Positions 45,005-64,000 of a DNA stretch of 64,000 nt are shown here, in pieces; the first letter of the stretch is position 1; each line of letters begins with the position of its first letter. Made by a program: the position numbers and the translations under genes. Location of the stretch: IMG/VR virus record IMGVR_UViG_3300029787_003156; one strand, given 5' to 3'. This DNA comes from an uncultured virus (IMG/VR IMGVR_UViG_3300029787_003156) (Duplodnaviria > Heunggongvirae > Uroviricota > Caudoviricetes). The notes beneath the pieces are model-generated. The model saw only the letters and a program-made list of their open reading frames with translations. It had not been told where the DNA came from and made no database searches.

Positions 45005-45011
45005 TATTTAT
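45005..45011 (-). promoter_or_regulatory. Late promoter ATAAATA overlapping the g7 stop codon
   Basis: ccATAAATAac on the minus strand, about 22 nt upstream of the 408-aa gene. Confidence 0.6.
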
Positions 45012-48000
45012 GGGGTTTCGGGGTCAACTCCCTCTTCCCCGTATAGACTTAAGTCTGGAGCAGTCCAGTCATCTGGGACTGAAGTCTCAACATTGATTAT
45101 AGGATTTTGATATCCAGAACCAACGTTACTAATTTCAACACCTGCTACACCAATTAGTGCACGAATGTTTCCATCAAATCCAGATATGGAGTCAACTCTT
45201 ACATTTGGTCTAGTTGTGTAACCAGATCCACCAGATGTAACTTGAACTTTATCAATAGTTCCAGATGTGAGAGTAGCAGATGCCTGAGCATTCTGTCCAA
45301 ATACAGATCCAAGATAATCAAATGTAATTAAGGAGTTTGAAGATTCGATAACAGCAACCTGTCTATCTTCAGTCTCACCTTGTATATCAATGAAGTCACC
45401 CACTTCTATTGGTGGTACAACTTCTGCAGCATCAACGTCCGCTTCAGAACCAACGTATGAGAATGCAACGAATGTTGATCCAACACGAGGAATTTCAGAG
45501 AAGATTATTCTAGAACCAACCAATTCAAAACCAACGCCTGGTTCCTGTATAACACCGTTCAATGAACAAATGATATTGTTCTCTGGTAATATTGTAGATG
45601 ATTGAACACCATCAGTTAGTGTCAATGAGTAGAATACATCATCACGCTTAAGGTTGAATGACTGACGTAATGAATCAAACTCGAAAGATATATCATCTAA
45701 TTGTCTTAGTTTACCAACATAGAATCCTGTGAATGATGCTCCAAGATCAGGTGCTTCAGTAAACTGGATGTTATCTGAGAATGCTGTATAAGCATTTGCT
45801 GAACCTGGTGGTTGTAGAACACCGTTGATGAAGATCAACATATGTCCTGCAGGATCTGGGAAGTACTTGGTTCCGTTTGAGATGGTTAACTTAAAGTTAG
45901 TTTGTGTTCCATCAAATCCTCTGAATGCACGTTCAACACGTCCTCTAAGATCAGTCTTAGTTATGACTGCTGCCTTGTAATTATCCTTACCAAAGATTCC
46001 ATCTCTACCACTAAATGTTCCTGTTACATTTGTTAGATAGAATCGTTTGTTAACACCAACATCTTTGATGTCTTGAATTACTGCACTAGCAGCTCCTGCA
46101 ATATCTAACTTAGTATTAATTACTGCATATCCTAATGGATTGAGTGGATCAGGAGCAACACCAAAATCACCAACTTGATCACCATTAGTAATATTTCCTG
46201 CTGCTAAGATGTAGTATAGAATGTTATTATCAAGATCAACTTCAGTAATATAACCATAGTTGTTTATATCAATGATGCCATTAGTAATCTTATTAAGTTT
46301 ATTACCTACTACAAATACATTTTTATTATTCTGAATTGTAATACCAATTCTTGTATGTCCTGCAGAAGAAATTCTATAACCGATTAATACATCTAACCCT
46401 TCATATCTGGCAACATCCATGAATAACTTAGATTGCTCAGGATATATTACAGCAGATGTTTCAAAACTACCTATTAGAGACTCAGTATCAACAGTTAATT
46501 TACCACCACTATTGTCAAGAACAGCAGCTTGTGCTTTTAAGAATCCAGTTGGAATTGCAGTTTCACCTGTGTCATATCCCTTGAATGGAATATTATTAAC
46601 AAATTCTCCTTCAAGACCAGTGATTTGTATTCTATCTTCAATAGCATTAATCTGTGCAGTTGTTGAGTTAGTTGCACCAACAACATAATCTAATACTGTC
46701 CATGTTCCACCAGTAACTGCAACATCAAGATACTTAAAGTTTTCATCTTCATAGAATGCATAAACAACACCTGTGACTGTTGAATCTCCTTGTTTTTGAA
46801 CAACTTCATTCATGAAGTAAGGACCATCAACAATATTAGCATCAATACGGAATCTTTGATATACTTGAACAATTTCACCTTCGTTCATAGTAACTTTTTC
46901 TAGTTCAGCATATGATCCACTTTCTAAACCATACAAGTAGTCAGCACCTGCAAGACCACCTGCAAGAGCAACAGGGAAATCAAATGTTCCATAATCTTTA
47001 GTTGGAAGACCTATTGCATTTTGAACAACAATGTCAGTATAGTAAGTGCTATTTAATAATTGATTACGAATTATTTCTAAACTATATCTTACCAATCTTT
47101 GAATTGAATCTGGATGATAATAAGTAGATGCACTATCACTGAAGAACGGTACAAAACCTGACTCAGGAGAAGGATTAAGAAGTTGATCTTTCAATGCATC
47201 ATATATCCATTCTTCCAATCTATCGATTGTATATGACTTAATATTATATTCTGTATCAGCGTAGAATACATCTCCAGTTGTAGCAGCATAAGGATCGATA
47301 GTTCCTTTAGTAAGTTTTAGACCCCATGCATAAAGACCATCAGATGCATTACCTGCAAAACTAGTTTGACCAGTAGCATTCTTAATTTGAATTTGTTGAC
47401 GGAGTTGAGAGAAACCGAATGAACATGTAATTGTTCCGTATGCTCTATACCATCCTCCACCATAAGGAATTACTCCAGTTCCATCTACTGTAAGACCACC
47501 TTGAGGTTGGAAGATACTACCTACACTTCCATCTGTTAAATCAATATCATAGAACAATTGCTGTTTCTCAGTAGTATCTCTATCAAGAGCCATCTCGAAA
47601 CGAACTTTACTATACTCACCTGCCTTTAAGAATACAGAATAAGTAAATTGCTGTGATTCAGTAGTTCCTACTTGTCCAGTATCAAATGTCTCTGTTGATG
47701 AGTCAAACTTAACTGTGCCACCGTCAAATGTTTCAAATGCATTTAAACTATAATTTCTGTGTATTAAATGTTCACCAACAGTAGATGAAGCAATAATCTT
47801 ATCAGCACTAATTGCGTTATCAGGTGCAACAGCACTATCAGCACCTATGGTTATTTCGGTAAGTGTATTACCACTACTTAAATCTTCTGGATAATTATAA
47901 CCAACGTTTTCACCTATTAATTGATCTTGAACAGTAGAACTAATTAATCTTGCATTTCTAAGAATTTCAACGTTTGATGGTTGTGTATACCAATCAAATG

Positions 48001-51000
48001 CAATACCAACTCCTCCAGTTGGAATAGTTCCACCACCTTGAGTTCCACCAGTAAGAGTCTCACCTGCAGAAATTGTACCACTAAGGAAAGGTCCGACATA
48101 TAGATGTCTGTCTTTACTATCCCATTCAAGAATCTGAGCGTATCCACCACCATTAGCAGTTACAACTTCACCAACTATAAATTCTCCACTCACACTTGTA
48201 ACAGTTATTCTTCTTGCTGTAGTCTTATGATCTATAGGAGTTGTGATGGAGTCTTGAACTATATTTCCAACTAACTCATCAACGAAATCATTATAGACCC
48301 AAGCACCATTACCAAACTGAGTATTAACAAGGTTGTTTAGTTCATTCTTATAATAGTTTACATTATAAAGAATATTCTTCATACCATTTCTAGCCTCTTT
48401 CTTGCCAGGTGAGAAGAATTCAATTACATGATCAAGAAGATTATTCCAATCTCCAATTACTTGATCAATATCTACAGTCTCTAAATCATCTCTAAATGCT
48501 GCTTGAGCAGCGTTTGTTACATATCCACCGAAAGGAATATTTTCTGATGAATTGAATACGTTATTTCTAATTGCTTCTCTACCTGCTTCCTTAAGAACTT
48601 CCATACCATAAACAGTTGGCATAAGCATATCTTCAATTCTATGAAGAGTTCCATCAGAATTAAGATACACTTCTTGAAGTGCTCTAATAGAACTATTATT
48701 ACCACCTGTTTGTAAATCAGATATTAGATTTTGAATCAATACCTCAACATCTGCTTGGAAGTCTGCTGCTGATATATTATTTCCATCAAATTGGAATGCA
48801 AAGTATGTTGTAGGACCTGCTTGATATGTAAACTCAGTTAACATTCTAGAAGTTACATCTGATGCAAGAAGTTCTCTGTTAAAGTAAAGTCTGTTACCTG
48901 CAGTATCATAATCTAGACCTGTAGGTGCGATAATATCATTAACTGTATTGATTAATGATTCGATATTACTCTTAACATCTGCACAATCACCGATAACACT
49001 AACTGCATCTGTAGCAGTACCACCTGCCCATACGTGAGTATATTCACCACCAGCAATTATAGATTCTGTATCTGCAGAATGGAATGTATGAACATAATCA
49101 CCACCAGATCTTACAGCACCTGCATTAGCAGAAACAAATGTATGTGCTGATGTATCAGATATAGCACCTTGTCCACCATTTACGTTGATAGTAATAGTTC
49201 CTGCTGCGGTATCTGCAGAATCAATATTGATTGCAGTATCGTATGCATAGTCAGCACCAGTTCCTGTATTAGCAGTAGTAGCACGAGGATATGATTTCTG
49301 AATTGTATTACCATCTAATGTGCAAGTAAAGACTAATGACTCAGTAGCAAGTTTAATGCTAGTACCAGCAGTCAAAGTGTGAGATCCTATTGTCAATACC
49401 ATTACACCTGTAGTAGGATCGTAAGTAGCATTAGAAACTGTATGTAAAACTATTGGACTCTGCCCAACGTTTAACTGAATAGTATCTGCTGTAGTTGCAG
49501 TAATATCAATAGGTTTGTTGTAGAATGGATCACTAGTTCTTGGATAAGGTTTAATAGACTCATTTCCATCCATTGCACAAGTAAACTTCAATGCACCTTG
49601 ATTAATCTTAACTGGTTGACCAACCTCTAAATTGTGGTTGCCAATAGTAAGAACTAACACACCAGTTGTAGCAGTGTATGTTGCGAATGTTGGAGTATAC
49701 TTAACTTCTGGAGTAGTTCCTACATTAACAGTTACAGTTGTTGTAGTAGCACTTGTAATTGTAAGTGCCTTACCATATGCAGGATCTGTTGCACGAGGAT
49801 ATGTCTTATTAGAAACGTTACCATCCATTGAACATGTGAATGTCAATGCTTCATTACCAATTTGTAAACTATCTCCTGCAGTAAATCCATGACCAACAGT
49901 AACTGCATTTGTAGCAGATGGAGTAACAACAAAGTTATGAGTTGTGGTATCTGTAATTGCACCCTGACCACCGTTAACGTTAACAGTGATTGTTCCACCA
50001 CTCTGATTTACCTGAGTAATATCAAGGAATTGATTATATGCATAGTCAGCACCATTTGTTGTACCAGCACCAAATGATCTAGGATATCTCTTCTGAGTTT
50101 GATTACCATTACCATTATAATCACAAGTGAATACTAATGATTCCTCAGCAATTCCAACCTTATCATTAGTTGTTAAAGTATGGGTTCCGATTGTAAGTGT
50201 TAGATCACCTGATGTTGGATTATAAACTGCACCACTAACACTAAATGTTCCAGTGTTTGATGCAAGAGTCATTACCAAATCACCAGTTCCTGCGTCATAA
50301 GATGCATTGTATACATCATAAGTTGTTACACTATCATCATTGGTTATACCCCAATCTCCAACGATAAGATTTTCTGTATTATCAGTAGTTAAACTTCCAT
50401 CTATTGCTTGCTTTAAGTAGAATACTAAACGATTATGAACGTAAATTGATTGTAGTAACTGTAATCTAATATGTTGTATTTCATTAAATTGACCAATGTA
50501 GAATCCTGCAGCAGCAACAACGTTCTTATTACCACCATTTTCAATATCATTAGCAAGTCCACCACAAACCTGTGTAAGGTCAGTCTTACAACGCTCAATT
50601 CCATCTGTAGATGCACCATTATTGTTTCTAGGCATATCCTGATAAAGAGCAGGGTAGCGAATTAACATATCATAGGATGCTTTATCTACAATAGCACCTG
50701 TGTTCTGACGAATTAAATTAGCAGCATCACGGAATCTGTAACGACTGAATACATCGATTCTATCTGTGTATACCATTTCCTGAGCATCATCTTCGTATGT
50801 AACTTTGAATGGTACTTCTAGATATGAATGAATTGTTCCACCAACAAATTCATCTACTGGAAGAAGATCAGTAATAGATGCAAGATGATCTACAGGAGAT
50901 GGTAAAGCAGCCTGAGTGATTGTATCTCTAAGAATATCAATTAAGTTGTTTGTAGTTGTATAAACGTCAGAACAATTTGTAATTACATACTTAGACTTAG

Positions 51001-54000
51001 TAATAGAATTAGCATCACCACTAACAAATAAGTGATCATAACGTTTGTCTTGTGGAGACTTGCCAACGTTAACTACGAATCTATTATCATCCTTAGTCTT
51101 AACTTCCATTACATGCTTAGCTGCAGGATCAGTGGCACGTGGATAATCATGTTGTGTTTCATGATTATCTTGAGAACAAGTAAATCTTAGTGAATTATTA
51201 TCAATGTAAATTGAATCACCTGCAACATGTATACCGTTAGAAGTAGCAGAAACAAATGTATGAGTATAGTCACCACCAGTTCTAACACCATTTGTAAGAC
51301 CAGATATAAACTTATGCTTATAGTTACCACCAGTTGAAACTATTGCTCTTGTAATCGCATTAGTTGTAGCAGAAACAAATGTATGAGTTGTAGTATTTGT
51401 AGAAGGAATTTCATCTAATACTTGAACATCGAAAGTAGTATTCGTGACGTTATGAACATCTAACCATCTACCACTAGCAGGATCAGTTACTCTTGGATAT
51501 GGATGGTTTGTAGCATTACTATCATGAGTACAAGTAAATGTAATACCATTATCAGCAATCTTAATTTTTTCACCGTTCTTCATTCCATGTGAAACACTGA
51601 CTGCATCTGCTAATGCTGATACAAATACATGGTTGGTTGTATCAGTAATTGCTCCACCGCCACCGTTAACATTAACAGTAATAGTGGTGTTGGTTGTGTC
51701 TGTAATTACTAATTGATTATTGTAAGCAAAGTCTGCACCGCTAGGAGTTGCAGCACCTGTTGCTCTAGGATATGTCTTATTTGTAGTATTTCCATCTCCA
51801 TTATAATCACAAGTAAATGTTAGTGAATTAGGAGCGATTAATATTTCTTCTCCAACTGCCAAACTATGAGTTCCAATAGTCATTTGCATCTCACCAGTTA
51901 TCGCATTATAAGCAACAGTAGAAGGTTGGAAGTTAGCAGTTAAAACTGTTATGGTCATTAGACCTGTAGTTCCATTATAAACTGCATTAGTTGGTGTAAA
52001 CTGAGATGTTGCTACAGAATCTAAAGTATGATTTGGTGTGAATGAAGGCGTATATCCATCTAAAGCATTGATAGTAATAGTATTTCCTGTTACTGCATCA
52101 ATAGGAATTGCCTGAGCAACAAGTGGATCTCCTTGAATGATACAATTATCAAGAGAACCTGCATAGGTATGAGTTGTTGTATTTGTAGGAGTTGTTCCTT
52201 GTAAAATATCAACTTCAAACTGAGTATCAGATACATTCTTGATAAACAACCACTTATCACTTGCAGGGTCAGTAGACCTTGGATATGGATGTAAAGTAGC
52301 ATTATTATCATGTGCACATCTGAATGTTACGCCACCATCTTTGATTTTAATAGGTGTACCAGCAACCATACCATGTCCAAGGGTAATACCATTTGTAGTA
52401 GCTGAAACGAATGTATGTGCTGATGTATCTGAGATAGCACCTTGACCACCATTCAAGTTAACAGTTATAGTATTGTCACCAACATCCATAACTCTGAGCC
52501 ACTTATCATAAGCATAGTCAGCACCACTTGTTGTATTAGCACCTGTTGATCTAGGATAAGATTTCTGTGCAGTGTTGCCATCTAATGTGCAAGTAAATGT
52601 TAGTGAGTTAGGAGCAAGTTTAACTTTGTTGCCAGGTACTATACCATGACCAACTTGAACTGCACCATCAAGTGCACCAACAAATGTATGATTACTAATG
52701 TCAGTAATAGCACCTTGACCACCGTTAACGTTAACAGTGATTGTTGTTCCTGTAACTGCACTAATGTCTAACCATGTATCATAAGCATAATCTGCTTTTG
52801 AATTTGTTGAGTTGTAAGCACCTGCAGCACGAGGATAAGGGTGAATTGTTGTATTATTATCGTTATTATAATCACAAGTAAACTTAAGTGATTCTGGAGT
52901 AATTTTAATTCTGTCACTAGTTGTTAGACTATGAGTTCCAAGTGTAAGAACTAAAGTTCCAACAGAAGGTGAGTAAGTTGCACCAGTAACATTATATGAT
53001 CCTGCATTCTGTGATATTGTTAATACACATGCACCTGATGTGACATTATAATTTGCAGCAGAAGCAGTAAATGATTCAGTAGGAATTGAAACTGTAAGAG
53101 CACCTGTTACTGGGTTGTAACTTGTACCTGTAGATGGAGTATGAGTAGCAACATTAGATCTTGGATATACATGCTTAGTAGCATTGGTATCCATATCACA
53201 TGTCATTAGTAATGAATCAGGAGCAAGTTTAACAGTGTAATTTGCCTTGCTAACACAGTTATTAACTGCACTTACAAATGTATGAGTATCAACGTTAGTA
53301 GAAGGAATTGAATCTAAAACTTGAACATCAAAAGTATCTGTAGTTACGTTGAATATTGGAATCCATTTGTTGCTAACTGGGTCAGTTGAACGTGGATAAT
53401 CTTTCTGTGCAGCAGTTCCAGTTGCACCACCGTAAGGACAACTTAATTTAATACCATTATCAGCAATCTTAATTTTCTCACCATTAGAGAAGTTATGACC
53501 TGCAATAGTCAGAGTCATTACACCACTAACAGGGTTATAAGCAACATCAGTTGGTGTATGTTGTGTTGGAGCAGGATAACTATGTGTTCCGACATTTAAT
53601 TCTAAAGCACCAGTACTAGCATTATAAGTTGCAGCAGATGGAGTATATGCCTTAGTTGGAGTAGCACCAACGTTAACAGTAACAGTATTATCACGCTTAA
53701 CAATACCATCCTTAACTGCTCTTACAAATGTATGTGCATACTGACCTGTAGAACTTGCTTCACCAACAAATACTGTAAATGTATGATCACTAACTGCTTT
53801 AATTCTTAACCATCTAGCAGCGTATGGATCTTTACGTCTTGGATATGAATGCTCTGTTTTATTACCATCTTTAGCACAAGTAAAGACAAGAGAATTATTT
53901 TCTAATCTAAGTTCTGTGCCAACTGTTAAACCATGATTTAGTATATTAATAGTCAATAGTCCAGTTGCAGTATTATAACTTGCACCTTCAGCAGTCATTC

Positions 54001-57000
54001 TAGTGTTACCATTACTCCAAATTGGAATAGCGGTATTATAAACTGAATCATCGACTCTAGGATAAGAATGAACTGTAGAATCATTATCCTGTGAGCATGT
54101 AAATGATAGAGCGTCTTTAGCAAGTTTTAGTGTTTCACCAGATCTTGTTAGACCATTAACTTTAGCACGAACAAATGTGTGAGCAGTTTGGTTAGTAGAA
54201 GGTGTAGAACTTAGTACTTGAACATCGAATGTTGTATGAGTTACATTAGAAATAGGTAACCACTTATTATAGTAAGGATCTGTAATTCTTGGGTATGTGT
54301 GTTCAGTAGCACCACTATCTTCAAGACATGTAAATGTTAGAGAGTCTCTATCGAACATGACTCTATCACCAACATATAAGCCATGCTCTACTGTTATAGC
54401 GTTATCAAGTGCAGATCTAAACTTATGCTTATAATTACCACCAGTAATTACAGCACCTGCTTTAGAAGTTGAATATGTATGAGTTGTTGTATTACTTGAA
54501 ACACCAACATTAATAGTAATAGTTGTTCCAGTTGTAGCAGTAATTGGAATAGATTGTTCAAATGACTTATCACGTTTCTGTGATATAACATCTGTAAAAC
54601 TTACAAAAGTATGAGTAGATGTATTTGTGGAAGGAGCAGTATCTAATACTTGAACATCGATTGATGTTGTTTGAACATTACTTATTTCAATCCATTTATC
54701 ACTAATAGGATCATAAGGTCTAGGATATCTGTGAGTAGTTGCATTATTATCTTTATCACATGTGAATGAAAGTGAGTAATCAGGAATCTTAACCTTATCA
54801 CCATTCTTCATTCCATGTCCCTGATTAACAGTGAATGTTACTACACCTGTTGTTGGATTATATGATGCATCAGTTGGAACATGCACATCAATTAGAGGTC
54901 TTGGGTAGTAGTGAACACCTGCACCATATGTGCATGTAAATCCAATACTTTGAGTTGCTATTCTAATAGAAGTACCTGAAGACAAACTATGATTTCCAAT
55001 AGTCAACTCCATATCACCTGTATTAGGATTGAATGTTGCATTGGAAACATCAAATTCAACTATAGGAGATTTACCAACGTTTACTGTGAATGATTCATCA
55101 GTTACATGAAGAACTTCTAATGCTGTATTACGTGCAGGGTCAGTTGCTCTTGGATATGGGTGATCAGTAGCATAGTCATCTTGAGAACATCTGAATGTAA
55201 GACCATCATTAGCAATCTTAACTTTCTGTCCTGTTTTTAAGTTATGTGAACTAACAAAGATTTCTAAATCTCCACTTGTAGGACTATAATCAGCATCAAT
55301 AACATTATACTGATCGTTACCAATACCTACTGTCATTACACCACTAGTAGGATTATATGCTGCACTTTCAACAGTGTATTTACTTCCTGGTCTTAGATCA
55401 TTGTCACCAATGTCCATAGTTAAGAAACCAGTATTACTATTATAATCTGCTGAAGTTGCAGTAAAGTTTACTGTAGGAGATGTTCCAACATTTACACTAA
55501 AGTTATCATTATCAATCTTCGATACTTCTAACCAGCCTTGATTTGCTGGATCATCATCTCTAGGATAACTCTGTGATACTACATTACCATCACAAGTACA
55601 AGTCATGGTAATAGAATTAGGCTCAAACTTAATTCTGTCCCCAGTTTCTAGTGAGTGCCCAACAGATTCAATAGTCAAAACACCAGTGGTAGCAGTGTAT
55701 CCCGACCCTGATGCTGTTATAGTTCTAGGGGCCGCGAGTCCATGACTTGCAGCTGTTATTTCCATGTCACCCATTGATGGATGATAGTCGATTGCTGTTG
55801 GTGTAAACTTAGTTAATGTTTGAGATGTGTAACCATCAAATGTAATAGTAGTGTCATACTTCTGAGTTAAACCATGATCACCTTGAGTACTCCAAGGAAC
55901 ATTATTAACAATATACTTAGCAATTTTATCTAATATTTCATAAACATAGACTGTCATAGAGACATCATCTTCTACGTTTACAATTTGAATTGGATTAACT
56001 TCTCTATTAACATAGTATGAAGCTGCTTTCCACATATGATGATTACTACCATTACGTAAATCTTCTACTATAGAATCGACAACATCTCTTACATCATCTT
56101 CACAATCAACTTCACTACCCTTAACACTATGAGCAGGGAATACTTCCTTCATAATATAAACTGTTTCTTGAGCAAGATATTCCTTGTTCATTAACATTAA
56201 ATCTGCAGCGTTAATATATCTGTGACTCTTAATATTAAATCCTGCAGGTGCAGCAGTTGGATTAGAACTATTTGTTGTTAATATAGAATCGTTATTAACA
56301 TATTCACCCTTAGTAAATGATTCACCACCAGACCAATCTTCAGTCTTAGTTGCTCCATCAGCACCATCAAAGTGGCATAATACTTTAGTATCAGTATCTC
56401 CTTGGAAAATACCATTAGGAGAAGTAAATGGAATTGTTGCATAACGTGCAACAGTAGAATATCTAAACTCATCAATATGAGCAGTTATAGAATTAAGACC
56501 AGATAAATCTGCACCAATTCTAATTGGTCTATCTAAGGTATAATTACCACTATCTGTTCCAGTTCCAATCTCAACTCCATTAGATATAATCTTAACAGTA
56601 GTTCCAGTTCTTTGAATTACAAGATGATACCAAACATTATTGTTTAGAGCATTTCCACCAGAGGTTGCTATATCTGAACCATTAACATTAACACGAACTT
56701 GTGCTGCTTCTAAGTAAATTCTAAGTGCAACTTCAGTAGCACTTGTTCTCATATCAACTAAAGTCTTAGTATCTGCTAAAGATACTGCATCTAGACGAAT
56801 CCAGAATTCAATAGTGTAATCACCTGTACCACGAGTAAATTCAGATGATGCAGGAATTTGAATATAATCACTTGTTGCTAGATCAAGTTGTAATGAAGAA
56901 TCTCCAAATTTCTTAATTGAAGTATCTAATTGAGCACTACCAGAGAAGTTGAATACATGATAATCACCACCACCTCTTAATGATCTACCAATCTTACCAA

Positions 57001-60000
57001 GATATATTGTATTACCTGAGAAATTAAATCCAATTACTTCTGCTTTAGTATCTCTAGTTCTTATTGTATCGCCTGTGGAGAATAGACCAGTTCCTATCTT
57101 ATCTTTAAATGATAGTTTTCTAGACTTACCAGCTTCACCACTATTAAATGTTCCAACATTATTACCATAATCAAATTTATAGTTCCTAATCTTCTCACCT
57201 ATAGATAATGATCCAGAAGCATTATCGTAAGGAATTACAATTTGACTTATAAATTCGTTAGCAGGGAATTGAGAATCAATATCTGTTACGTAGTCTGTAT
57301 AGTCAACAACACTAATTGTTGATAATGAAATATCATCTAGAACAATATTTGGGTATGTAATTGATGTAACTCTGTTGAATAGTAATCCAAAGAATGAAGA
57401 TCCTTCTGAAATATTAACCTGACCGATAAACTCATTAGTTGTAGGATCTTGATATGTTGATGTAGCAGTCAATCTTGCAACTACACCAGACTGAGCACCA
57501 ATAATAACATCATCAAGAGCAAGATCAAATAAACCAGGTGTAGACTGATATGTTCCAGTAGTTTTACTTAAAGTTAACTTGTCATTAACAAGAACTGTTG
57601 TTGCATATACAGGACCATCTTCTGCCTGTGTTGCTGCTGTAGTACCTAATTCACCTCTAGTTATTTCTAATACAACTGAATCATTGTTAGTAGTAACGTT
57701 AGTTACATTTACAATTTCAGAACCAATCTGATAGTTACCACCTACAGTAAATGTTCCTGCTGCAGGAGGTGTATCAGCATCTGTAGAAAGTATCTTTGCT
57801 GCTACAATTTCAACTGATGCAGTTGAAGGACCTATACCATAACGTAATTGACCAAGTGGAGCTTCAGAACCACCTGCTAAGTTAATTGCTTCAACTTTAG
57901 CAGTCTCTCCAGTAAGGTTTGAAACCTGCTCTCCAAATACAAACAATCCAAGATTTGAAACAGTTGATACTGAAGCATAGTTTGCAATAAATCCAGTAGC
58001 ACTGTTACTTACCAATTCACCAACTGTAAATGCAGTTCCTTCTACAAAGAAACCGAAAATTGAATTACCAACAACAGCTGTAACAGTAAATCTTGCTAAA
58101 GAAGTCTGTCCAGCCATTGTATTTCCCTTGAGTGGGAATATTCCACTGATATTAGTAAATTCAAGAGTAGATATAGTAATCTCTTGAATAGTAACGTTTA
58201 CATACTTAATACTTGCAGGTGGTTGTGGTGGTTGACTGAATACAATAGAATCACCTTGAATATTAAATGATGTCTCAGGAGTTTGAGCAACACCATTTAA
58301 GATGATCATTAACTGATTAGCATTAGCAACTACGTTGTCACCATTAACTTTTAATTGGAACTGTGTTTTAACACCATCAAATTGATTTGATATATCATCA
58401 ATACGCTGAACAACAGAAGTCAAAATGTTCTCAGAAGATGTCAATCTCTTCTGTCTGAATAATACTTCTGAGTTATTAAACTGTGAGTAGACTGGTTCAA
58501 CTAGAGAGAAACTCTGAATGTTAGGTACAATTGCTTCTCTTGCTAATTCAACAGCTTTGGTTATCTGGAAATCAGTTTCTTTGTTAGGAATTTGACCATA
58601 TTCAGCCAGATTTAATTCACCGAATACTTTGAATGATGCAGGGTGAACGTTCTTAAGTAATATCTCTTTCCACTCACCAATAGAAACAGCAGACTTAACA
58701 GCATATGAGAAGTCCTGATAATAGTAACTATCTTGAATTTTCTGAATAATTTCAGATGGTTTACCAATATCATCAATGAACTGACCAGTTGTTTTAGTGA
58801 TAGAACCAATTTCAAGAACACCACGAGCAATCTTAAGATCACTTATAATACCAGAAGACTTAGAAATAACACCTGTTATTCTTTCGTTAGCATTAAAGTT
58901 TCCAGTGTAATCAACAATCTTAATAATTCTAGGTCCTACCTGCCAACCTTGGTTAGTAGAAACATATCCACTAGCAGTTGCAGCATCTAAAGTATCTCCT
59001 TGATAAACAAGTTCACCTTCTAAGAATGTAGAAGTAATAACGTTAGCAGTTGCTGCACCACCGAATGATTCAGTTAATATTGTTTGACGACCTGTTCCTG
59101 CGTTAACAAATGATAAAGAGTCACCTAATGCAGCGTTAGCAGCAGTAATAGCAATCTTTAATTGGTTTTCTTCTAGTGAGTTTGCAGTACCAGCAATAGC
59201 ATAATATGTGTTAGTAGAATTCAAACGACCAACAGCACCTGCTGATAATGGGAACTCAGCACCATCACCAGTATCAGTAACTGTTAATGTAACCTCAGAA
59301 CCATTCACAATACCATGTGGGAAAGCAAATTGTAGTAATCCTAAGTCAAGGTTAACAACATAGTTGAAAGAAGATCTTAATGCAACAGTAGGAGCAGAAG
59401 AGTAACCTGATCCTGGATCTTTAACAAGAATATCATCTAAACGACCATTCTTAATGAATGCTTCAGCAGTTGCATTTTGTCCACCACCACCTGTGATAAC
59501 AACGGTTGGTGCTTGTGAATATCCAGAACCTGGATCTGTAACTGTAATACTATCAAGTATACTTGTGGATGTTAACTGTGCGTTAATTGGGAATGAAATC
59601 TCAGGACGTAAAGTATAGTCATGAGGATAATCATATCCAAAGTTGTTGTTCTGTAATTTCTTAATCTTACCAACTTTAGTTCCTTTGGTAAAGATAGAAG
59701 CACCAGTTCCTGCAGGAGGAATAACAACATTCAAATCAACACCAGAACCTGTTAAACCTGCTCCAAGAATACCCGATATAGATTCAACATCAATACTTGC
59801 AGTAGTATATCCTTTACCTGGTGATGTAACAACAACAGACTGTATTTGACCAGGAATCGTTACTCCATCATCATCAGTTCCGTCTGCTACAGTAATAGAA
59901 ACAAATCCACCTTCTCCATCACCTGCAATAGGAACACTATTGTAAACACCTACAGCATATTCAGTACCTGGTGCATCAATTTGAATTCTTTCTATTTGTC

Positions 60001-63000
60001 TAGATGACTGAATAGATGTAACAACTGGAAGTCTAGTATAGAAACCTCCTCCATTAACAATACGAATATCACTTATAGAACCAACTGCTTTCAATGAACT
60101 AGTGCTATAAGATGTATTGATAACATCAGCATTACCCTCTGGTTCGTTAGCAAGAACAAATTTAAAGGTATCTGCACCACGAGTAATAGTTGCACCAGAT
60201 GTAGAAGTAATTGCGAAATTACCTACGTAAGGTGAATTAACAACATCTAAGTAACTAGATGCAATAACTGGAGAATCAGCACCTGTTCTAGATGGGTCAA
60301 AGTAGTAAGAAATATTAGTAACAATGTCAGTATCAACTTTTAACTTAACAGTAGGGTTAGGAACACCTTGACCAGTAATACCAGGTGTACCTACTCTTTC
60401 AATAGAGTTGAATGAATATTCCAGTTTATAAAGATTATCTTTAGAGAATGATAAGTTACCACCCGCCATAGAAGAATGACCAACATCAAAGAGATATTGA
60501 TGTCCATAATACATTTTAAGAACAGGTGACTTAACGTAGATATTAACACTTCCAGAACTTGTAGCTGGTGAAGTTATTGCAGCAGAAGGTAATTTATATG
60601 TAAATTCAACAGGACTTACAATAGTGTGAACTGGGAAAGCACCATCATATTCATCATAAACGACACTATCAACAGTTTGTGATGGGTTACCATCAATACT
60701 AACCATTTCACCTTGAGTAAGGTAATGACTATTTGCAGTAACAATATAAACTTCATCACTATTAGCAACAGCAGTTACTTGTATAATTTTCTTAAGTGTT
60801 GCTACTAAAGTAATCTTAAGAACACCAGTTAAATTGATAATTGATGCAGTTGTATATGCAGCATTGAAACTAATATCACCAGAGTTAATATTAACAACAG
60901 ATCCAGGAATAAAAGGTGAACCACCAGCTACTTCATCAATTCTTATAGAGTAATCATCATCAGTATAAGGTTTAAAGTTAGTTAATTCATCAAGATTATT
61001 TGAACCTCCTTCTGGGTGATTAAAATTGTTTAGATCTATATCAAATGTACCAGGTGTAGTGTTGTTTAGTAGTGGGAAGGTGTATATTAATTCATTAACA
61101 TCTGCGGGTATAGGACCTACAATTCCATAAGTGCTTTGCTCATTAAACTGTTCTGTAGTTAATTCACCAGTATTAAGATCATTTGCCCAAGCATTATTAT
61201 TAACAGCAAGATATATCTTATTACCTACACTATTTTGTCTAATAATGTATCCACTATTAATGAATGATCCTGATGAACTACTTAATACTAATTTTGAACC
61301 TGTAGTAAATACAAATTGCTGATTTAGAGTAAGTTCTTGAATATTATCAATCTTGACTGTAGGTGTAACTTTAAAGAAGTATCTGTCTTTAACAACTGCA
61401 GTAACTCTTAATTTTTTAGAACCTGGTGAAGGAACAGTAGCAGTTCTAGAACTCCAAACGTCTTGAGTATAAGATAATGAATCAGAGTCCTGAGTCATTG
61501 ATGTATCAGCATCATCAAAGTCTAAGTTTTGGAATCCTGCTTCTGCTAATCCAAATCCAGTATTATTAACAGTTAATGGTAAACCTGTTTGTAATACAAT
61601 AGCAGTTCTAGTAAATCCAACTTGTGTGTTAGTTTGAACAGTTTGAGTTCCAATTCTTGCAGCATCAGAGTTCTTATCAACTTTTAAACCCCAACCAACA
61701 TAATCGATATAATCATATTTGTTAGTGTAAGTAGAGAACCATGATGTATCAGTCCATGTAAATCCTTCACTAAACTCACCTGCAATAGGATAGTTAGTAA
61801 CATCATTAGGAACTGTAGGAACAACTGCTCTGTTTCTAATACGAAGATTATCAACAAAGTATTGACCTTGTTCATTAGAACGGAATTGATTTAAAGTTCC
61901 ACTCTTACCAGGAATATTACCAATGTATAGATTTTGATTCTGGAATGCAGTATTATCAATAGTTCCTTGAAGAACTTGTATACCGTTGACATATGCTGTA
62001 TACTGACCTGCAGATTTAGTAAGTGCAACAAATTGCCAAGTATTATCGGCAAACATTGTTGTAACTGTAGATTGTAGTGAACCTGATGCAGAGTTGAGTG
62101 CAGTTCCATTTGCAGTAACAACTAACTGCATCTCTCCAGATGAAATATCATAATACAACCATAGACCACCAGTAGATAATGTTGCATCACCTATTGCTAT
62201 TAGGGTTTGTTGTGTTTGAGAGTGTGTATTATTGTTATTAGCAGCATCTTTAAACAACATGAACTCAATAGTCCAGTCGCCAGTCATTTTAGTTGTTAAA
62301 TCTGATCCATTAACTTGTATAACTGAATTTACCCAAGTACTAGGAGTAGTAGAGTCTTTTCCTAGTAATTTTGCAAATCCATTAGTAGTATCATATTGAA
62401 GTGAGTTACCGTCTCCTACAAAGGTTGCTGTATAGTGTCCTGTAACATCTGTAGTTGCACCACTGGTAAATGGTATTAGAAGTTCATTTCTATTCCAAGA
62501 AGTTTGACCAAATACATGAATATCACCAGAACTATCAGGATATAAACTATGTGCAGTTACACCTTCAATATTATTAAGATCAAATTTATTATTTGTCTGA
62601 TTCTTAATAATACCGTTATAACCAACTTTAACTACGTCTACAGTTAATTCTCCATTTGTATTGAGATATTTGTTGACAGCAATATTAAGATCACCAAAGA
62701 TATCAATATGAGTTCTTTTAGCAACATTAATAGTGTATCCACCAGCTACTGCATAACGATAGTTCCAAAGGAAAGCACCATCTGAATCTAATTTACCAAT
62801 CCAGAAACCATCTTTTGTTGTATTGTCTGATTTAAGTCTTGTTGTAGCAGTAATGTATAATTCACTAAATTCATCGATAGTAAGACTTGTATCCATGAAT
62901 GAATACAGTGTATTAGTTAATTGCTTAGTCCAAACAAGACTAATTGCACTAGTACCTACAGTTGCTTTACCAATACCTGTATCAACGCTTGTTGCATTAG

Positions 63001-64000
63001 GACTTGTAGCAATTTCTAATGTATAGTATATGTCAGTTCCATTTACAAGTAAATCTGTAACTTTTTCAGAAACATTTACAGAAGTAATCTTTCTCTTAAC
63101 AGCAAAGTTACCAAGTGTGTCTACAACAGCAATATAAGCATCAAATGGATTACCAGAGTTAGTATTAGTGAAACCACCTAAAACAAATCTAGTATCAGAG
63201 TATTTTGCAATAGCACTAATATTGTCGGAACGAGTAGAACCAGATATACCTGCATATGCCTTTTGATACTGTAAAGTAGCACTTAATCCATTTTCTGCCT
63301 GTGTATACTTACAAAGAACAACATCAGGGTTATATGCCTCTAAGATACTTGCATTTGGTTTATTATGACCTGCAACGTAAATATCTTGTCCATCAATTAA
63401 TAATCTCTCAAATTCTACTTCTTGTTGTCCATCAGTACTCTTAATTGTCTTTTCCCAGTCTTTTACACCAGTAGCAGATAGTTTTGCTAAGAATCCAATA
63501 GTATATCCAAAAGAGTCTTTTGTTTTACCACAAATGAATATTTCTTTAGCATCATTTACAAATACGTCATTAACCTTAACATAATTCTCATTTGCAATCT
63601 TAGAAACATAATAATCTGCTTTCTTATAGATTTGAGGGTGTGATAATATAACTCTTGGGTTTGTAGTATAGTTTTGACCAGAGTTAGTAATATTAACTGT
63701 AGAAATAGATCCTACAGATGTTACAACCGCTTCTAATGCTGCAGCAGTTCCATCACCATCAAGAATGATTGTTGGAGGTAATTCACTATTATATCCAGAA
63801 CCTTGCTGATCAATAACAATTTCTTCAACACCTTTAATTTGTTTAACAACAAAAGTTTTATTAGTGTTGTTCATTATAGGTGTGTAATCTATAACAACCT
63901 GATCATCAACAGTTAAGTTGTGAGGAGTTGAAGTCTTTAAAACACCGTAGTTAATACCACCAATACTTTCATAACTGTAAGTTGAAACTGCCTCTCCTTT
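45008..64000 (-). CDS. g7: Giant baseplate wedge initiator (gp7-like), >6330 aa; 5' end outside the window
   Basis: Frame stays open from 63874 to 64000 (KGEAVSTYSYESIGG...DYTPIM). gp7-type core IQDSYYYQDFSYAVKS...W...L...VHPASFKVFGE at about 58620-58760. Also beta-propeller-like repeats, two LamG-like domains and Cys/His repeat arrays; lies upstream of g8. Confidence 0.85.
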   Translation of the reverse strand, partial: KGEAVSTYSYESIGGINYGVLKTSTPHNLTVDDQVVIDYTPIMNNTNKTFVVKQIKGVEEIVIDQQGSGYNSELPPTIILDGDGTAAALEAVVTSVGSISTVNITNSGQNYTTNPRVILSHPQIYKKADYYVSKIANENYVKVNDVFVNDAKEIFICGKTKDSFGYTIGFLAKLSATGVKDWEKTIKSTDGQQEVEFERLLIDGQDIYVAGHNKPNASILEAYNPDVVLCKYTQAENGLSATLQYQKAYAGISGSTRSDNISAIAKYSDTRFVLGGFTNTNSGNPFDAYIAVVDTLGNFAVKRKITSVNVSEKVTDLLVNGTDIYYTLEIATSPNATSVDTGIGKATVGTSAISLVWTKQLTNTLYSFMDTSLTIDEFSELYITATTRLKSDNTTKDGFWIGKLDSDGAFLWNYRYAVAGGYTINVAKRTHIDIFGDLNIAVNKYLNTNGELTVDVVKVGYNGIIKNQTNNKFDLNNIEGVTAHSLYPDSSGDIHVFGQTSWNRNELLIPFTSGATTDVTGHYTATFVGDGNSLQYDTTNGFAKLLGKDSTTPSTWVNSVIQVNGSDLTTKMTGDWTIEFMLFKDAANNNNTHSQTQQTLIAIGDATLSTGGLWLYYDISSGEMQLVVTANGTALNSASGSLQSTVTTMFADNTWQFVALTKSAGQYTAYVNGIQVLQGTIDNTAFQNQNLYIGNIPGKSGTLNQFRSNEQGQYFVDNLRIRNRAVVPTVPNDVTNYPIAGEFSEGFTWTDTSWFSTYTNKYDYIDYVGWGLKVDKNSDAARIGTQTVQTNTQVGFTRTAIVLQTGLPLTVNNTGFGLAEAGFQNLDFDDADTSMTQDSDSLSYTQDVWSSRTATVPSPGSKKLRVTAVVKDRYFFKVTPTVKIDNIQELTLNQQFVFTTGSKLVLSSSSGSFINSGYIIRQNSVGNKIYLAVNNNAWANDLNTGELTTEQFNEQSTYGIVGPIPADVNELIYTFPLLNNTTPGTFDIDLNNFNHPEGGSNNLDELTNFKPYTDDDYSIRIDEVAGGSPFIPGSVVNINSGDISFNAAYTTASIINLTGVLKITLVATLKKIIQVTAVANSDEVYIVTANSHYLTQGEMVSIDGNPSQTVDSVVYDEYDGAFPVHTIVSPVEFTYKLPSAAITSPATSSGSVNIYVKSPVLKMYYGHQYLFDVGHSSMAGGNLSFSKDNLYKLEYSFNSIERVGTPGITGQGVPNPTVKLKVDTDIVTNISYYFDPSRTGADSPVIASSYLDVVNSPYVGNFAITSTSGATITRGADTFKFVLANEPEGNADVINTSYSTSSLKAVGSISDIRIVNGGGFYTRLPVVTSIQSSRQIERIQIDAPGTEYAVGVYNSVPIAGDGEGGFVSITVADGTDDDGVTIPGQIQSVVVTSPGKGYTTASIDVESISGILGAGLTGSGVDLNVVIPPAGTGASIFTKGTKVGKIKKLQNNNFGYDYPHDYTLRPEISFPINAQLTSTSILDSITVTDPGSGYSQAPTVVITGGGGQNATAEAFIKNGRLDDILVKDPGSGYSSAPTVALRSSFNYVVNLDLGLLQFAFPHGIVNGSEVTLTVTDTGDGAEFPLSAGAVGRLNSTNTYYAIAGTANSLEENQLKIAITAANAALGDSLSFVNAGTGRQTILTESFGGAATANVITSTFLEGELVYQGDTLDAATASGYVSTNQGWQVGPRIIKIVDYTGNFNANERITGVISKSSGIISDLKIARGVLEIGSITKTTGQFIDDIGKPSEIIQKIQDSYYYQDFSYAVKSAVSIGEWKEILLKNVHPASFKVFGELNLAEYGQIPNKETDFQITKAVELAREAIVPNIQSFSLVEPVYSQFNNSEVLFRQKRLTSSENILTSVVQRIDDISNQFDGVKTQFQLKVNGDNVVANANQLMIILNGVAQTPETSFNIQGDSIVFSQPPQPPASIKYVNVTIQEITISTLEFTNISGIFPLKGNTMAGQTSLARFTVTAVVGNSIFGFFVEGTAFTVGELVSNSATGFIANYASVSTVSNLGLFVFGEQVSNLTGETAKVEAINLAGGSEAPLGQLRYGIGPSTASVEIVAAKILSTDADTPPAAGTFTVGGNYQIGSEIVNVTNVTTNNDSVVLEITRGELGTTAATQAEDGPVYATTVLVNDKLTLSKTTGTYQSTPGLFDLALDDVIIGAQSGVVARLTATSTYQDPTTNEFIGQVNISEGSSFFGLLFNRVTSITYPNIVLDDISLSTISVVDYTDYVTDIDSQFPANEFISQIVIPYDNASGSLSIGEKIRNYKFDYGNNVGTFNSGEAGKSRKLSFKDKIGTGLFSTGDTIRTRDTKAEVIGFNFSGNTIYLGKIGRSLRGGGDYHVFNFSGSAQLDTSIKKFGDSSLQLDLATSDYIQIPASSEFTRGTGDYTIEFWIRLDAVSLADTKTLVDMRTSATEVALRIYLEAAQVRVNVNGSDIATSGGNALNNNVWYHLVIQRTGTTVKIISNGVEIGTGTDSGNYTLDRPIRIGADLSGLNSITAHIDEFRYSTVARYATIPFTSPNGIFQGDTDTKVLCHFDGADGATKTEDWSGGESFTKGEYVNNDSILTTNSSNPTAAPAGFNIKSHRYINAADLMLMNKEYLAQETVYIMKEVFPAHSVKGSEVDCEDDVRDVVDSIVEDLRNGSNHHMWKAASYYVNREVNPIQIVNVEDDVSMTVYVYEILDKIAKYIVNNVPWSTQGDHGLTQKYDTTITFDGYTSQTLTKFTPTAIDYHPSMGDMEITAASHGLAAPRTITASGSGYTATTGVLTIESVGHSLETGDRIKFEPNSITMTCTCDGNVVSQSYPRDDDPANQGWLEVSKIDNDNFSVNVGTSPTVNFTATSADYNSNTGFLTMDIGDNDLRPGSKYTVESAAYNPTSGVMTVGIGNDQYNVIDADYSPTSGDLEIFVSSHNLKTGQKVKIANDGLTFRCSQDDYATDHPYPRATDPARNTALEVLHVTDESFTVNVGKSPIVEFDVSNATFNPNTGDMELTIGNHSLSSGTSIRIATQSIGFTCTYGAGVHYYPRPLIDVHVPTDASYNPTTGVVTFTVNQGHGMKNGDKVKIPDYSLSFTCDKDNNATTHRYPRPYDPISDKWIEISNVQTTSIDVQVLDTAPSTNTSTHTFVSFTDVISQKRDKSFEQSIPITATTGTTITINVGVSSNTTTHTYSTSKAGAVITGGNYKHKFRSALDNAITVEHGLYVGDRVMFDRDSLTFTCLEDSGATEHTYPRITDPYYNKWLPISNVTHTTFDVQVLSSTPSTNQTAHTFVRAKVNGLTRSGETLKLAKDALSFTCSQDNDSTVHSYPRVDDSVYNTAIPIWSNGNTRMTAEGASYNTATGLLTINILNHGLTVGTELRLENNSLVFTCAKDGNKTEHSYPRRKDPYAARWLRIKAVSDHTFTVFVGEASSTGQYAHTFVRAVKDGIVKRDNTVTVNVGATPTKAYTPSAATYNASTGALELNVGTHSYPAPTQHTPTDVAYNPVSGVMTLTIAGHNFSNGEKIKIADNGIKLSCPYGGATGTAAQKDYPRSTDPVSNKWIPIFNVTTDTFDVQVLDSIPSTNVDTHTFVSAVNNCVSKANYTVKLAPDSLLMTCDMDTNATKHVYPRSNVATHTPSTGTSYNPVTGALTVSIPTESFTASAANYNVTSGACVLTISQNAGSYNVTGATYSPSVGTLVLTLGTHSLTTSDRIKITPESLKFTCDYNNDNNTTIHPYPRAAGAYNSTNSKADYAYDTWLDISAVTGTTITVNVNGGQGAITDISNHTFVGALDGAVQVGHGIVPGNKVKLAPNSLTFTCTLDGNTAQKSYPRSTGANTTSGADYAYDKWLRVMDVGDNTITVNLNGGQGAISDTSAHTFVSATTNGITLGHGMVAGTPIKIKDGGVTFRCAHDNNATLHPYPRSTDPASDKWLFIKNVSDTQFEVDILQGTTPTNTTTHTYAGSLDNCIIQGDPLVAQAIPIDAVTGNTITINALDGYTPSFTPNHTLDSVATSQFTPTNAVYNGTTGLMTITVLTANFQPSTVAYNAITGEMQMTIGTHSLAVGEEILIAPNSLTFTCDYNGDGNTTNKTYPRATGAATPSGADFAYNNQLVITDTTNTTITVNVNGGGGAITDTTNHVFVSALADAVSVSHGMKNGEKIKIADNGITFTCTHDSNATNHPYPRVTDPASGRWLDVHNVTNTTFDVQVLDEIPSTNTTTHTFVSATTNAITRAIVSTGGNYKHKFISGLTNGVRTGGDYTHTFVSATSNGIHVAGDSIYIDNNSLRFTCSQDNHETQHDYPRATDPAAKHVMEVKTKDDNRFVVNVGKSPQDKRYDHLFVSGDANSITKSKYVITNCSDVYTTTNNLIDILRDTITQAALPSPVDHLASITDLLPVDEFVGGTIHSYLEVPFKVTYEDDAQEMVYTDRIDVFSRYRFRDAANLIRQNTGAIVDKASYDMLIRYPALYQDMPRNNNGASTDGIERCKTDLTQVCGGLANDIENGGNKNVVAAAGFYIGQFNEIQHIRLQLLQSIYVHNRLVFYLKQAIDGSLTTDNTENLIVGDWGITNDDSVTTYDVYNASYDAGTGDLVMTLASNTGTFSVSGAVYNPTSGDLTLTIGTHTLTTNDKVGIAEESLVFTCDYNGNGNQTQKRYPRSFGAGTTNGADYAYNQFLDITQVNQSGGTITVNVNGGQGAITDTTTHNFVVTPSATNAVTVGHGFTAGDSLQIGNEALTFTCSMDGNVSNKTYPRATDPAYGKALTITSATTTTVTVNVGTTPEVKYTPTFATYTATTGVLVLTIGNHNLEVGQPVKINQGALKFTCAMDGNESIKPYPRTSDPFYNKPIDITATTADTIQLNVGQSPIVLHTVSNATYDPTTGVMVLTIGSHTLTAGTSIKLATESLVFTCTLDGNTIQKSYPRATTANTGTGADYAYDTAINIDSADTAAGTITINVNGGQGAISDTSAHTFVSANAGAVRSGGDYVHTFHSADTESIIAGGEYTHVWAGGTATDAVSVIGDCADVKSNIESLINTVNDIIAPTGLDYDTAGNRLYFNRELLASDVTSRMLTEFTYQAGPTTYFAFQFDGNNISAADFQADVEVLIQNLISDLQTGGNNSSIRALQEVYLNSDGTLHRIEDMLMPTVYGMEVLKEAGREAIRNNVFNSSENIPFGGYVTNAAQAAFRDDLETVDIDQVIGDWNNLLDHVIEFFSPGKKEARNGMKNILYNVNYYKNELNNLVNTQFGNGAWVYNDFVDELVGNIVQDSITTPIDHKTTARRITVTSVSGEFIVGEVVTANGGGYAQILEWDSKDRHLYVGPFLSGTISAGETLTGGTQGGGTIPTGGVGIAFDWYTQPSNVEILRNARLISSTVQDQLIGENVGYNYPEDLSSGNTLTEITIGADSAVAPDNAISADKIIASSTVGEHLIHRNYSLNAFETFDGGTVKFDSSTETFDTGQVGTTESQQFTYSVFLKAGEYSKVRFEMALDRDTTEKQQLFYDIDLTDGSVGSIFQPQGGLTVDGTGVIPYGGGWYRAYGTITCSFGFSQLRQQIQIKNATGQTSFAGNASDGLYAWGLKLTKGTIDPYAATTGDVFYADTEYNIKSYTIDRLEEWIYDALKDQLLNPSPESGFVPFFSDSASTYYHPDSIQRLVRYSLEIIRNQLLNSTYYTDIVVQNAIGLPTKDYGTFDFPVALAGGLAGADYLYGLESGSYAELEKVTMNEGEIVQVYQRFRIDANIVDGPYFMNEVVQKQGDSTVTGVVYAFYEDENFKYLDVAVTGGTWTVLDYVVGATNSTTAQINAIEDRIQITGLEGEFVNNIPFKGYDTGETAIPTGFLKAQAAVLDNSGGKLTVDTESLIGSFETSAVIYPEQSKLFMDVARYEGLDVLIGYRISSAGHTRIGITIQNNKNVFVVGNKLNKITNGIIDINNYGYITEVDLDNNILYYILAAGNITNGDQVGDFGVAPDPLNPLGYAVINTKLDIAGAASAVIQDIKDVGVNKRFYLTNVTGTFSGRDGIFGKDNYKAAVITKTDLRGRVERAFRGFDGTQTNFKLTISNGTKYFPDPAGHMLIFINGVLQPPGSANAYTAFSDNIQFTEAPDLGASFTGFYVGKLRQLDDISFEFDSLRQSFNLKRDDVFYSLTLTDGVQSSTILPENNIICSLNGVIQEPGVGFELVGSRIIFSEIPRVGSTFVAFSYVGSEADVDAAEVVPPIEVGDFIDIQGETEDRQVAVIESSNSLITFDYLGSVFGQNAQASATLTSGTIDKVQVTSGGSGYTTRPNVRVDSISGFDGNIRALIGVAGVEISNVGSGYQNPIINVETSVPDDWTAPDLSLYGEEGVDPETP
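48990..55815 (-). repeat. Two arrays of ~100-aa Cys/His repeat domains (15 + 4 units) within g7
   Basis: Recurring motifs Y.P.TG.L, H.L..G, FTC..D, YPR..DP, HTFVSA; arrays at about 50990-55815 and 48990-50330. Confidence 0.9.

Follow-up and report, generated by a model that had tools for sequence, protein, structure and literature searches.

Phycobiliproteins (PBPs) are known as soluble antenna subunits of cyanobacteria and algae and as a domain of ApcE, and not as parts of virus particles. In ApcE, which belongs to the host phycobilisome, one PBP domain is combined with REP linker domains, and in PBP structures the two bilin-attachment sites lie far apart. On the phage side, gp7 of T4 is not known to have PBP-like domains. 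Here we describe a giant structural gene on the minus strand of a 64,000-nucleotide stretch of DNA (hereafter the window) from an uncultured virus of the Caudoviricetes (IMG/VR record IMGVR_UViG_3300029787_003156). Its product, a putative baseplate protein at the position of gp7, contains three helical domains, A, B and C, which sequence profiles and predicted models together indicate are very probably diverged homologues of PBP subunits. Within A and B, long repeat arrays appear to interrupt the loop between helices G and H.

All domains and arrays described below lie on the minus strand. Residues are numbered from an internal Met at window position 63874, so that adding 1745 gives the full-length numbering, and coordinates marked C1 refer to the full virus record (G000; 124,934 bases, 71% complete according to CheckV). 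The body of domain A (55847..56257, aa 2540-2676), delimited by blastp and by hhalign to B, consists of PBP-like helices up to a 'QGDHGLTQ' loop. It is followed by array 1 with 15 units that bear a Y-P-R motif (YPR units; 50993..55846, aa 2677-4294, from repeat alignment and array-less relatives), and then by the helix read as helix H of domain A, 'NCSDVYTTTNNLIDILRDTITQ' (50879..50992, aa 4295-4332). The body of domain B (50330..50878, aa 4333-4515), defined by profiles, hhalign and fold models, comprises a PBP-like X/Y region and helices A to G. Array 2, with 4 YPR units (48995..50329, aa 4516-4960, from the split of a hidden Markov model (HMM) and from array-less variants), lies between 'GDWGITND' and the predicted helix H of B, 'GDCADVKSNIESLINTVNDIIAPTG' (48917..48994, aa 4961-4986). 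Domain C (48353..48916, aa 4987-5174; hhalign to B) is a complete, uninterrupted PBP-like domain. The three domains are repeats of each other, with blastp E-values of 8e-8 between A and B and 8e-6 between A and C, and hhalign matches of 98.8% (E 1e-16) between A and B and 98.6% (E 5e-16, 154 columns) between B and C. A first-pass annotation of the window had proposed phycobiliprotein-like helical domains in this gene, and all the peptides that it quoted are found in this one minus-strand open reading frame (ORF): RFRDAANLIRQNTGAIV from aa 4380 (window 50735-50737), RYINAADLMLMNKEYLAQ from aa 2552 (window 56219-56221), NCSDVYTTTNNLID at aa 4300 and GDCADVKSNIESLIN at aa 4962. The 'Cys-less degenerate copies' that it had placed at 48240-48910 correspond to domain C, where 'FQADV' has Phe in place of the Cys of relatives.

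Sequence profiles were derived from 109 related stretches collected from IMG/VR and searched with hmmsearch against 177,635 distinct PDB sequences at E<=10. With a 64-sequence profile of domain B, 44 of the 47 PDB hits were phycocyanin or allophycocyanin chains or bilin-binding fluorescent proteins, headed by smURFP (E 0.0014) and C-phycocyanin beta (1ha7_B, E 0.0042). All 20 hits of a 17-sequence B profile were PBP-type, and so were 44 of 48 for a 33-sequence profile of array-less B domains, in which the bilin-binding fluorescent protein smURFP was the best single HMMER hit (E 0.0012). When the B profile is aligned with residues 8-96 of C-phycocyanin beta, Cys82 of 'AACLRD' is matched by the invariant phage Cys and Asp85 by the invariant Asp, and 'VSYHDAANDIIYTNQID' of the phage is paired with 'VVSQADTRGEMLSTAQID'. 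In the smURFP alignment, the phage consensus '...IVDKASYDLLQRYPDL' stands opposite 'IVDKASQDLWRRHPDL'. For profile-to-profile comparison, cpcB and cpcA genes were taken from 80 cyanobacterial contigs, giving alignments of 45 CpcB and 30 CpcA sequences. Domain B matched CpcB by hhalign with P 3.1e-5 (probability 73%, 90 columns, CpcB residues 4-98) and the same Cys/Asp pairing, while the match to CpcA was weaker (P 8.3e-4). Domain A matched CpcB with P 0.0029 over 111 columns with its Cys aligned, and direct comparisons of domain C with PBPs ranged from P 0.0016 (CpcA) to 0.04. These profiles indicate that domain B is detectably homologous in sequence to bona fide PBPs, which is the profile match that the first-pass annotation had named as a check.

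The predicted fold points to the same family. An AlphaFold2 model of window aa 4295-4516, covering B, had a predicted local distance difference test score (pLDDT) of 69.9 and a predicted template modelling score (pTM) of 0.55. Its listed Foldseek matches were all PBP-type (best E 0.021, probability 1.0), two of these chains being titled only 'Bacterial fluorescent protein'. When compared by VIA-align with 48,161 chain representatives, the top match was phycoerythrin beta (5aqd_M, Z 11.8), with model residues 55-222 on chain residues 6-163; this match was obtained without the last helix, and an upstream helix (model 4-28) remained outside the alignment. A second model was made of L045, a naturally array-less homologue with 58% identity in B, and spanned the X/Y region, the body and the helix after it. 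This model had a pTM of 0.71, and among the Foldseek matches listed there were only PBP-type chains (best E 9.6e-4). Its VIA-align match to phycoerythrin beta reached Z 16.3 with a root-mean-square deviation (rmsd) of 4.0 over 167 of 184 residues, model 18-203 lying on chain 1-184. The top eight VIA-align matches were all PBPs or ApcE PBP domains (Z 12.5-16.3), and the families that came next were photocobilin, RsbR-type and globin-coupled sensor globins (Z <= 11.7). Domain B is thus predicted to have a PBP-type globin fold, the fold that had been expected from the letters of the window, complete with N-terminal X/Y extension and last helix H. Of the two computational checks by which the first-pass annotation could have been refuted, on fold and on profile match, neither refuted it. 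The fold argument is carried by the cover of the whole chain, by the single family matched and by the agreement with the independent sequence result.

Residues of the attachment type are conserved in these domains, even though many of the loci counted are close relatives and hence not independent. The Cys codons lie where they had been reported: Cys2591 of domain A at 56102-56104, in 'DCEDDVRD' with Asp at +3; Cys4429 of domain B at 50588-50590, in 'RCKTD' with the invariant Asp4432 at 50579-50581; and, at the start of the two post-array helices ('NCSDV...' and 'GDCADV...'), Cys4301 at 50972-50974 and Cys4964 at 48983-48985. The Cys corresponding to PBP Cys84 is present in 75/75 B domains (74 loci and the window) and the Asp at Cys +3 in all 64 aligned B domains, the 64-75 sequences in these counts spanning 46-100% identity. 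Of 17 aligned domain A sequences, 16 have the Cys, and in relatives the PBP 'PGGN' motif ('P-x-L-x-x-PGGN') is part of 'YPSLVIPGGNVNCEDD'. The helix-H Cys after A is kept in every locus that covers the region (64/64 aligned), and that after B in 73 of 74 loci, L062 having Phe. The sequences thus indicate an attachment-type pair like Cys84 and Asp87 in A and B and not in C. The first-pass annotation had regarded the canonical Arg and Asp of the motif as not conserved; this is incorrect for the Asp and holds for Arg86, which is absent in A ('CEDD'), B ('CKTD') and C ('FQAD') of the window.

Domain C is more variable. Its Cys is present in 51 of 75 loci, 44 times in the canonical C-x-R-D form ('TCQRD'), and is replaced by Phe in the clade of the window (9 loci and the window). 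In the copies of S-PM2 and P-HM2 the motif takes the forms 'KCRRD', 'KCKRD' and 'KCARD'. Only 7 of the Cys-bearing C domains also have Cys on their own last helix. In L059, L065, L066, L072, L076, L078 and L086, domain C reads 'C-K-V-D' or 'C-Q-T-D' and has this second Cys, while all other Cys-bearing C domains are single-Cys C-x-R-D, so that loss of the Arg accompanies gain of the second Cys. An obligate disulfide between the two Cys of one domain was considered and is unlikely, as domain C mostly has one Cys without the other; the independent variation of the two positions argues against an obligate pair. Such independence resembles the pattern of PBPs, where alpha-type subunits have one site and beta-type subunits have two.

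The relatives also show how the arrays are placed. In 38 of the 74 loci with both B and C, array 2 is absent and '...IVGDWGITND-GGGCANVKTAIDTLIT..NDIIAPT' leads straight into C, 'GDWGITND' running directly into 'GG-C-A-N/D-V...'. The remaining loci have 1 to 4 array-2 units exactly between 'GITN/D' and '(G/D)C'. Array 1 is likewise missing from L065, L067, L068 and L086, where 'GxHGLTQ' is connected to 'NNCADV' within about 22 residues. When an HMM of the contiguous form is run on the window protein, its match falls into two parts, positions 1-182 on aa 4333-4515 and positions 181-206 on aa 4961-4986. Adding the following helix extends the fold match from chain 6-163 to 1-184, which makes PBP helix H the best reading of the post-array helix; the contiguous form aligns with the whole PBP chain, as expected if the last helix resumes after the insert. 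When the B body (aa 4333-4516) and the post-array helix (aa 4952-4990) were predicted as a complex, the median was 0.31 against a mark of 0.32, which weighs on neither side. From the relatives and models together, we consider it probable that the arrays are inserted in the G-H loop of A and B, by about 1620 aa (array 1) and 445 aa (array 2), and that the chain returns for the last helix.

The arrays had been described as Cys/His arrays. Their insertion stands, and their composition is better given as 19 units with a YPR motif, about 75-145 aa long and probably rich in beta structure. The 16 units that were aligned share '..H.L..G..I.I....L.F.C..D.....(H/K).YPR..DP...W', in which Cys, Y-P-R and Asp are invariant and His is nearly so. 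The conserved Cys and His might form a metal site, for which they are candidates by sequence. No Pfam family matches the unit, and against the PDB it gave a weak match in several stretches to iota-carbonic anhydrase repeats, no single stretch being significant.

Among known systems, the phage domains resemble PBP beta subunits (CpcB, CpeB; PF00502). They share with these the predicted whole-chain fold, the Cys on Cys82, the Asp on Asp85 and, by position, a second Cys that starts the last helix after a 'G-I-T' loop ('NGITPGDCS' in CpcB, 'WGITNDGGGC' in the phage). Unlike beta subunits, they are covalently joined in tandem within an 8033-aa virion protein and have G-H inserts of 445 and about 1620 aa; they also fall below the Pfam threshold, lack Arg86 in A and B of the window, and have a C-terminal half without profile alignment. 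To PBP alpha-type subunits they are linked by the single-Cys 'K-C-x-R-D' form seen in domain C of relatives and in the S-PM2 and P-HM2 copies. Like the phage protein, ApcE is a large protein of several domains, one of them PBP-like in fold and interrupted by a loop insertion, and ApcE chains rank among the best fold matches (4xxi_A, Z 13.8, rmsd 2.0; also 9wg7_N2, 7sc7_BD and 7eyd_19). The insertion of ApcE, however, is short and located elsewhere; the phage protein, in a virion setting, has three such domains and giant arrays as inserts. The likeness to T4 gp7 lies in a gene directly after gp25 and gp6 homologues and in a match to PHROG 2885, whereas the phage protein is about eight times longer. 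A full-text search, with subscription journals outside its coverage, found no paper on PBP-like domains of cyanophage virion proteins.

The giant gene occupies window positions 45008..64000, and its reading frame continues beyond the window edge. The ATG at 63874 lies inside the gene and is not its start, the part downstream of it (45008-63874) encoding 6288 aa; the full gene (G000:C1:55826-79927) encodes 8033 aa. Its ORF starts 6 nt past the stop codon of a gp6 homologue, which is preceded by a gp25 homologue, and GPW_gp25 and Gp6-like domains are thus its immediate upstream neighbours. Along the protein there are matches to PHROG 701 and 18802 ('virion structural protein') and to PHROG 2885 ('baseplate wedge subunit'). 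Gene order and PHROG similarity identify it as a putative T4-type baseplate wedge protein at the gp7 position, its location in the particle being taken from PHROG labels only. A Pfam scan of the protein found only two ConA-like lectin domains (Laminin_G_3 / Laminin_G_2, minus strand), at aa 572-659 (about 61898-62161) and aa 2334-2477 (window 56443-56874), the latter of which stops about 70 aa short of domain A. An HMM scan of the 1745 aa upstream of the window (G000:C1:55826-61060) found no PBP-like copy, and the HMMs found no copies other than A, B and C in the 8033-aa protein or elsewhere in G000. Three more very large ORFs follow downstream on the minus strand (23197-30234, 30779-38005 and 39581-43750; 2345, 2408 and 1389 aa), none of which is matched by the PBP-domain HMMs. 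Elsewhere in the record (G000:C1:27325-38339), a tryptophan halogenase homologue is followed by short ORFs, at least five of them 2-oxoglutarate (2OG)-Fe(II) oxygenase or JmjC-type. No psbA was found in G000.

By tblastn, 305 phage records contain the helical region, with a top identity of 63% (S-SM1); each of them bears the name Synechococcus phage, Prochlorococcus phage or Cyanophage. As the matches all lie in cyanophage records, the source is a T4-like marine cyanomyovirus that has not been cultured. Searched by megablast, window 48000-51000 had no match among phage records. Among 15 cultured cyanomyovirus genomes searched with the B profile, PF06206 (CpeT) and PF05996, PBP-like domains were found in 12 and not in P-SSM2, S-SSM7 or S-SM2; in P-SSM2 the C profile, too, found nothing at E<=1. 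The PBP-like domain is widespread, in 305 phage records and 12 of 15 classical isolates.

Ten of the 15 genomes have CpeT, all ten of them with PBP-like domains and none among the three genomes without (Fisher one-sided p 0.022, n=15, kinship uncorrected). In S-PM2 and Syn1 the annotated order is a hypothetical gene, cpeT, a 2OG-Fe(II) oxygenase, the giant PBP-domain gene (S-PM2p218, Syn1_032) and the gp12 short tail fibre, with cpeT 0.7-1.4 kb upstream of the giant gene. In S-RSM4, cpeT lies about 3 kb from the PBP-domain ORF on the same strand. The virus described here has a CpeT homologue (PF06206, E 2e-14) outside the window, at G000:C1:12422-12874 between CP12 and the gp5 hub gene. CP12, cpeT, a 97-aa ORF and the gp5 hub gene stand in a row at G000:C1:12102-15682 within the baseplate gene region, and cpeT is therefore among structural genes in this phage too. 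The run of 2OG-Fe(II) oxygenases in G000 recalls the oxygenase gene between cpeT and the giant gene of S-PM2 and Syn1. In the S-PM2 record, 16 same-strand tRNA features are annotated inside S-PM2p218 (AJ630128:168556-173383; L263), apparently an annotation or coordinate artefact.

Cyanophages are described as carrying cpeT without the rest of the cpeESTR operon, and its role in phages was called 'unresolved' by Sullivan 2010 (PMC3037559). T-type lyases are described as acting on the beta-153 position (PMC10452541). Our proposed explanation is that the PBP-like cores of A and B would anchor the projecting arrays, with the chain returning to supply the last helix. The G-H insertion site would correspond to the peripheral loop that carries the second bilin Cys in PBP beta subunits. 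A bilin made by the host or the phage would be attached by thioether bonds to Cys2591, Cys4429, Cys4301 and Cys4964 during virion assembly, and the phage T-type lyase homologue CpeT may serve the helix-H Cys (Cys4301 and Cys4964). The C-terminal half of B has no profile alignment, and the label 'beta-155-like' for the helix-H Cys is therefore positional, from position and fold; CpcB reads 'NGITPGDCSALMSEI..YFD' where the phage has 'WGITNDGGGCANVKTAIDTLI', and this likeness is visible by eye. That the baseplate carries pigment through putative bilin attachment at the conserved Cys, with CpeT acting at the helix-H Cys, is a tentative proposal that we consider a real possibility. Pointers to it are the conserved C-x-x-D or C-x-R-D motifs, the cpeT gene of this phage, the confinement of cpeT to domain-bearing genomes among those searched, and its place near the giant gene in S-PM2 and Syn1.

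The pigment might in turn make fibre deployment or adsorption depend on light. Liu et al. (2019) report that darkness prevents the adsorption of P-HM1 and P-HM2 and not that of P-SSM2, and adsorption of several cyanomyoviruses is described there as light-dependent independently of host photosynthesis (PMC6628666). P-HM1, P-HM2 and S-PM2 have both the domains and cpeT, and P-SSM2 has neither (four phages, two or three independent lineages). This match is anecdotal and we treat it as a lead, not as evidence. That light absorbed by the putative pigment gates adsorption is the most speculative step, and we regard it as doubtful.

Several observations weigh against the kinship of the domains with PBPs and leave room for a chance resemblance, in which a generic helical bundle would match the motifs fortuitously. 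The single E-values are marginal (0.001-0.02). Domains A, B and C do not reach the Pfam gathering threshold of PF00502, which gave no hit at E<=10 on any of them and none in six frames of the 125-kb G000, while a control Synechococcus elongatus genome does match. On the full protein, CpcA and CpcB HMMs gave i-E of only 0.05 and 0.15, at aa 4382-4435. The domain A profile is weak, with PBPs as 3 of its 14 PDB hits (E>=0.5), and the domain C profile found no PBP in the PDB. With these direct searches of A and C weak or empty, their relation to PBPs is drawn by transitivity through B. The C-terminal half of B aligned with CpcB at the wrong place (P 0.14). Among 5.8 billion sequences, the B profile gave 50 hits (lengths 113-366 aa), apparently all fragments of giant phage proteins, and no PBP at E<=1; an ESM Atlas look-up of B stayed under a useful level of recognition and returned generic viral clusters only. 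Both models are of moderate confidence (mean pLDDT about 70), and helical models may score a VIA-align Z of about 14 by common architecture without kinship. Against chance, sequence profile and predicted fold independently choose the same small family, from 177,635 sequences and 48,161 chains respectively, and they agree at residue level at the attachment motif, which makes a fortuitous match very improbable. The domains could alternatively be globin-type sensors for haem or another cofactor that are not derived from PBPs. Globin-coupled sensor, RsbR-type and photocobilin globins also match the model (Z 8-11.7), and invariant His and Arg residues lie on the long F/G helix. However, PBPs reach Z 12.5-16.3 compared with <=10.9 for haem globins and match from chain residue 1, including the X/Y part, and the sequence profiles match PBPs and no haem globin; we find a sensor origin hard to credit. 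PBP kinship, which we consider very probable, is the reading that we carry forward.

Whether PBP kinship extends to a bound pigment is a separate matter, and here the doubts are greater. The loss of Arg86 in A and B and of the Cys in C has been described above. No bilin reductase or haem oxygenase gene was found in the 71%-complete G000, and among the cultured genomes bilin reductase genes do not track the domain (5/12 with it, 2/3 without). P-SSM7 and S-ShM2 have the domains and no PF06206 hit at E<=0.001, and a single lineage may account for the three genomes without domains, which means that the co-occurrence with cpeT is not independent evidence. We also know of no report of pigmented cyanophage particles, no search having been aimed at them. 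All this counts against bilin attachment, and the fold may instead have been exapted for its structure alone, as a helical hub or oligomerisation module that spaces the arrays and holds no chromophore, with Cys and Asp kept for folding, metal binding or contacts. PBPs naturally pair via the X/Y helices and form three-fold rings, and the phage domains are flanked by lectin-like and fibre-like modules in a protein at the gp7 position. The clade of the window keeps domain C despite its lost Cys, PF00502 does not match, the occurrence of bilin synthesis genes does not follow that of the domain, and the invariant Cys and near-invariant His of the array units suggest a general structural or metal role of Cys. 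Yet a hub gives no reason why exactly two positions of the PBP attachment type and the Asp at +3 should be kept across 64-75 sequences, and it leaves unexplained the full K-C-x-R-D motif in many copies, the restriction of cpeT to domain phages and its adjacency in S-PM2 and Syn1. Such a purely structural role is the strongest alternative; it is possible, and we are inclined to doubt it. The domains might also mimic the host without pigment, as a decoy or docking site for phycobilisome partners (linkers, lyases, NblA-type factors) or as a receptor-binding surface. They are clearly derived from a host protein family, and phage CpeT could bind such a domain without pigment transfer. Such mimicry is improbable, as baseplate proteins remain outside the cell where phycobilisome partners are absent, no sign of interaction surfaces was found and the conserved Cys would be unexplained.

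In its widest form, the bilin-attachment proposal would make the virions of most T4-like marine cyanophages biliproteins. The substrate of CpeT would then be a phage baseplate or fibre protein and not host phycoerythrin, and the PBP-like domains at the root of the arrays would be the photoreceptor behind the light-dependent adsorption of S-PM2, P-HM1 and P-HM2. Taken as a whole, this is unlikely. If bilin is bound, these phages would have a virus particle with a photoactive pigment, which would offer a testable candidate both for light-dependent adsorption and for the puzzle of why cyanophages have cpeT. Even without a pigment, a fold of the host light-harvesting apparatus would have been exapted into the phage baseplate, with giant repeat arrays grafted into one of its surface loops.

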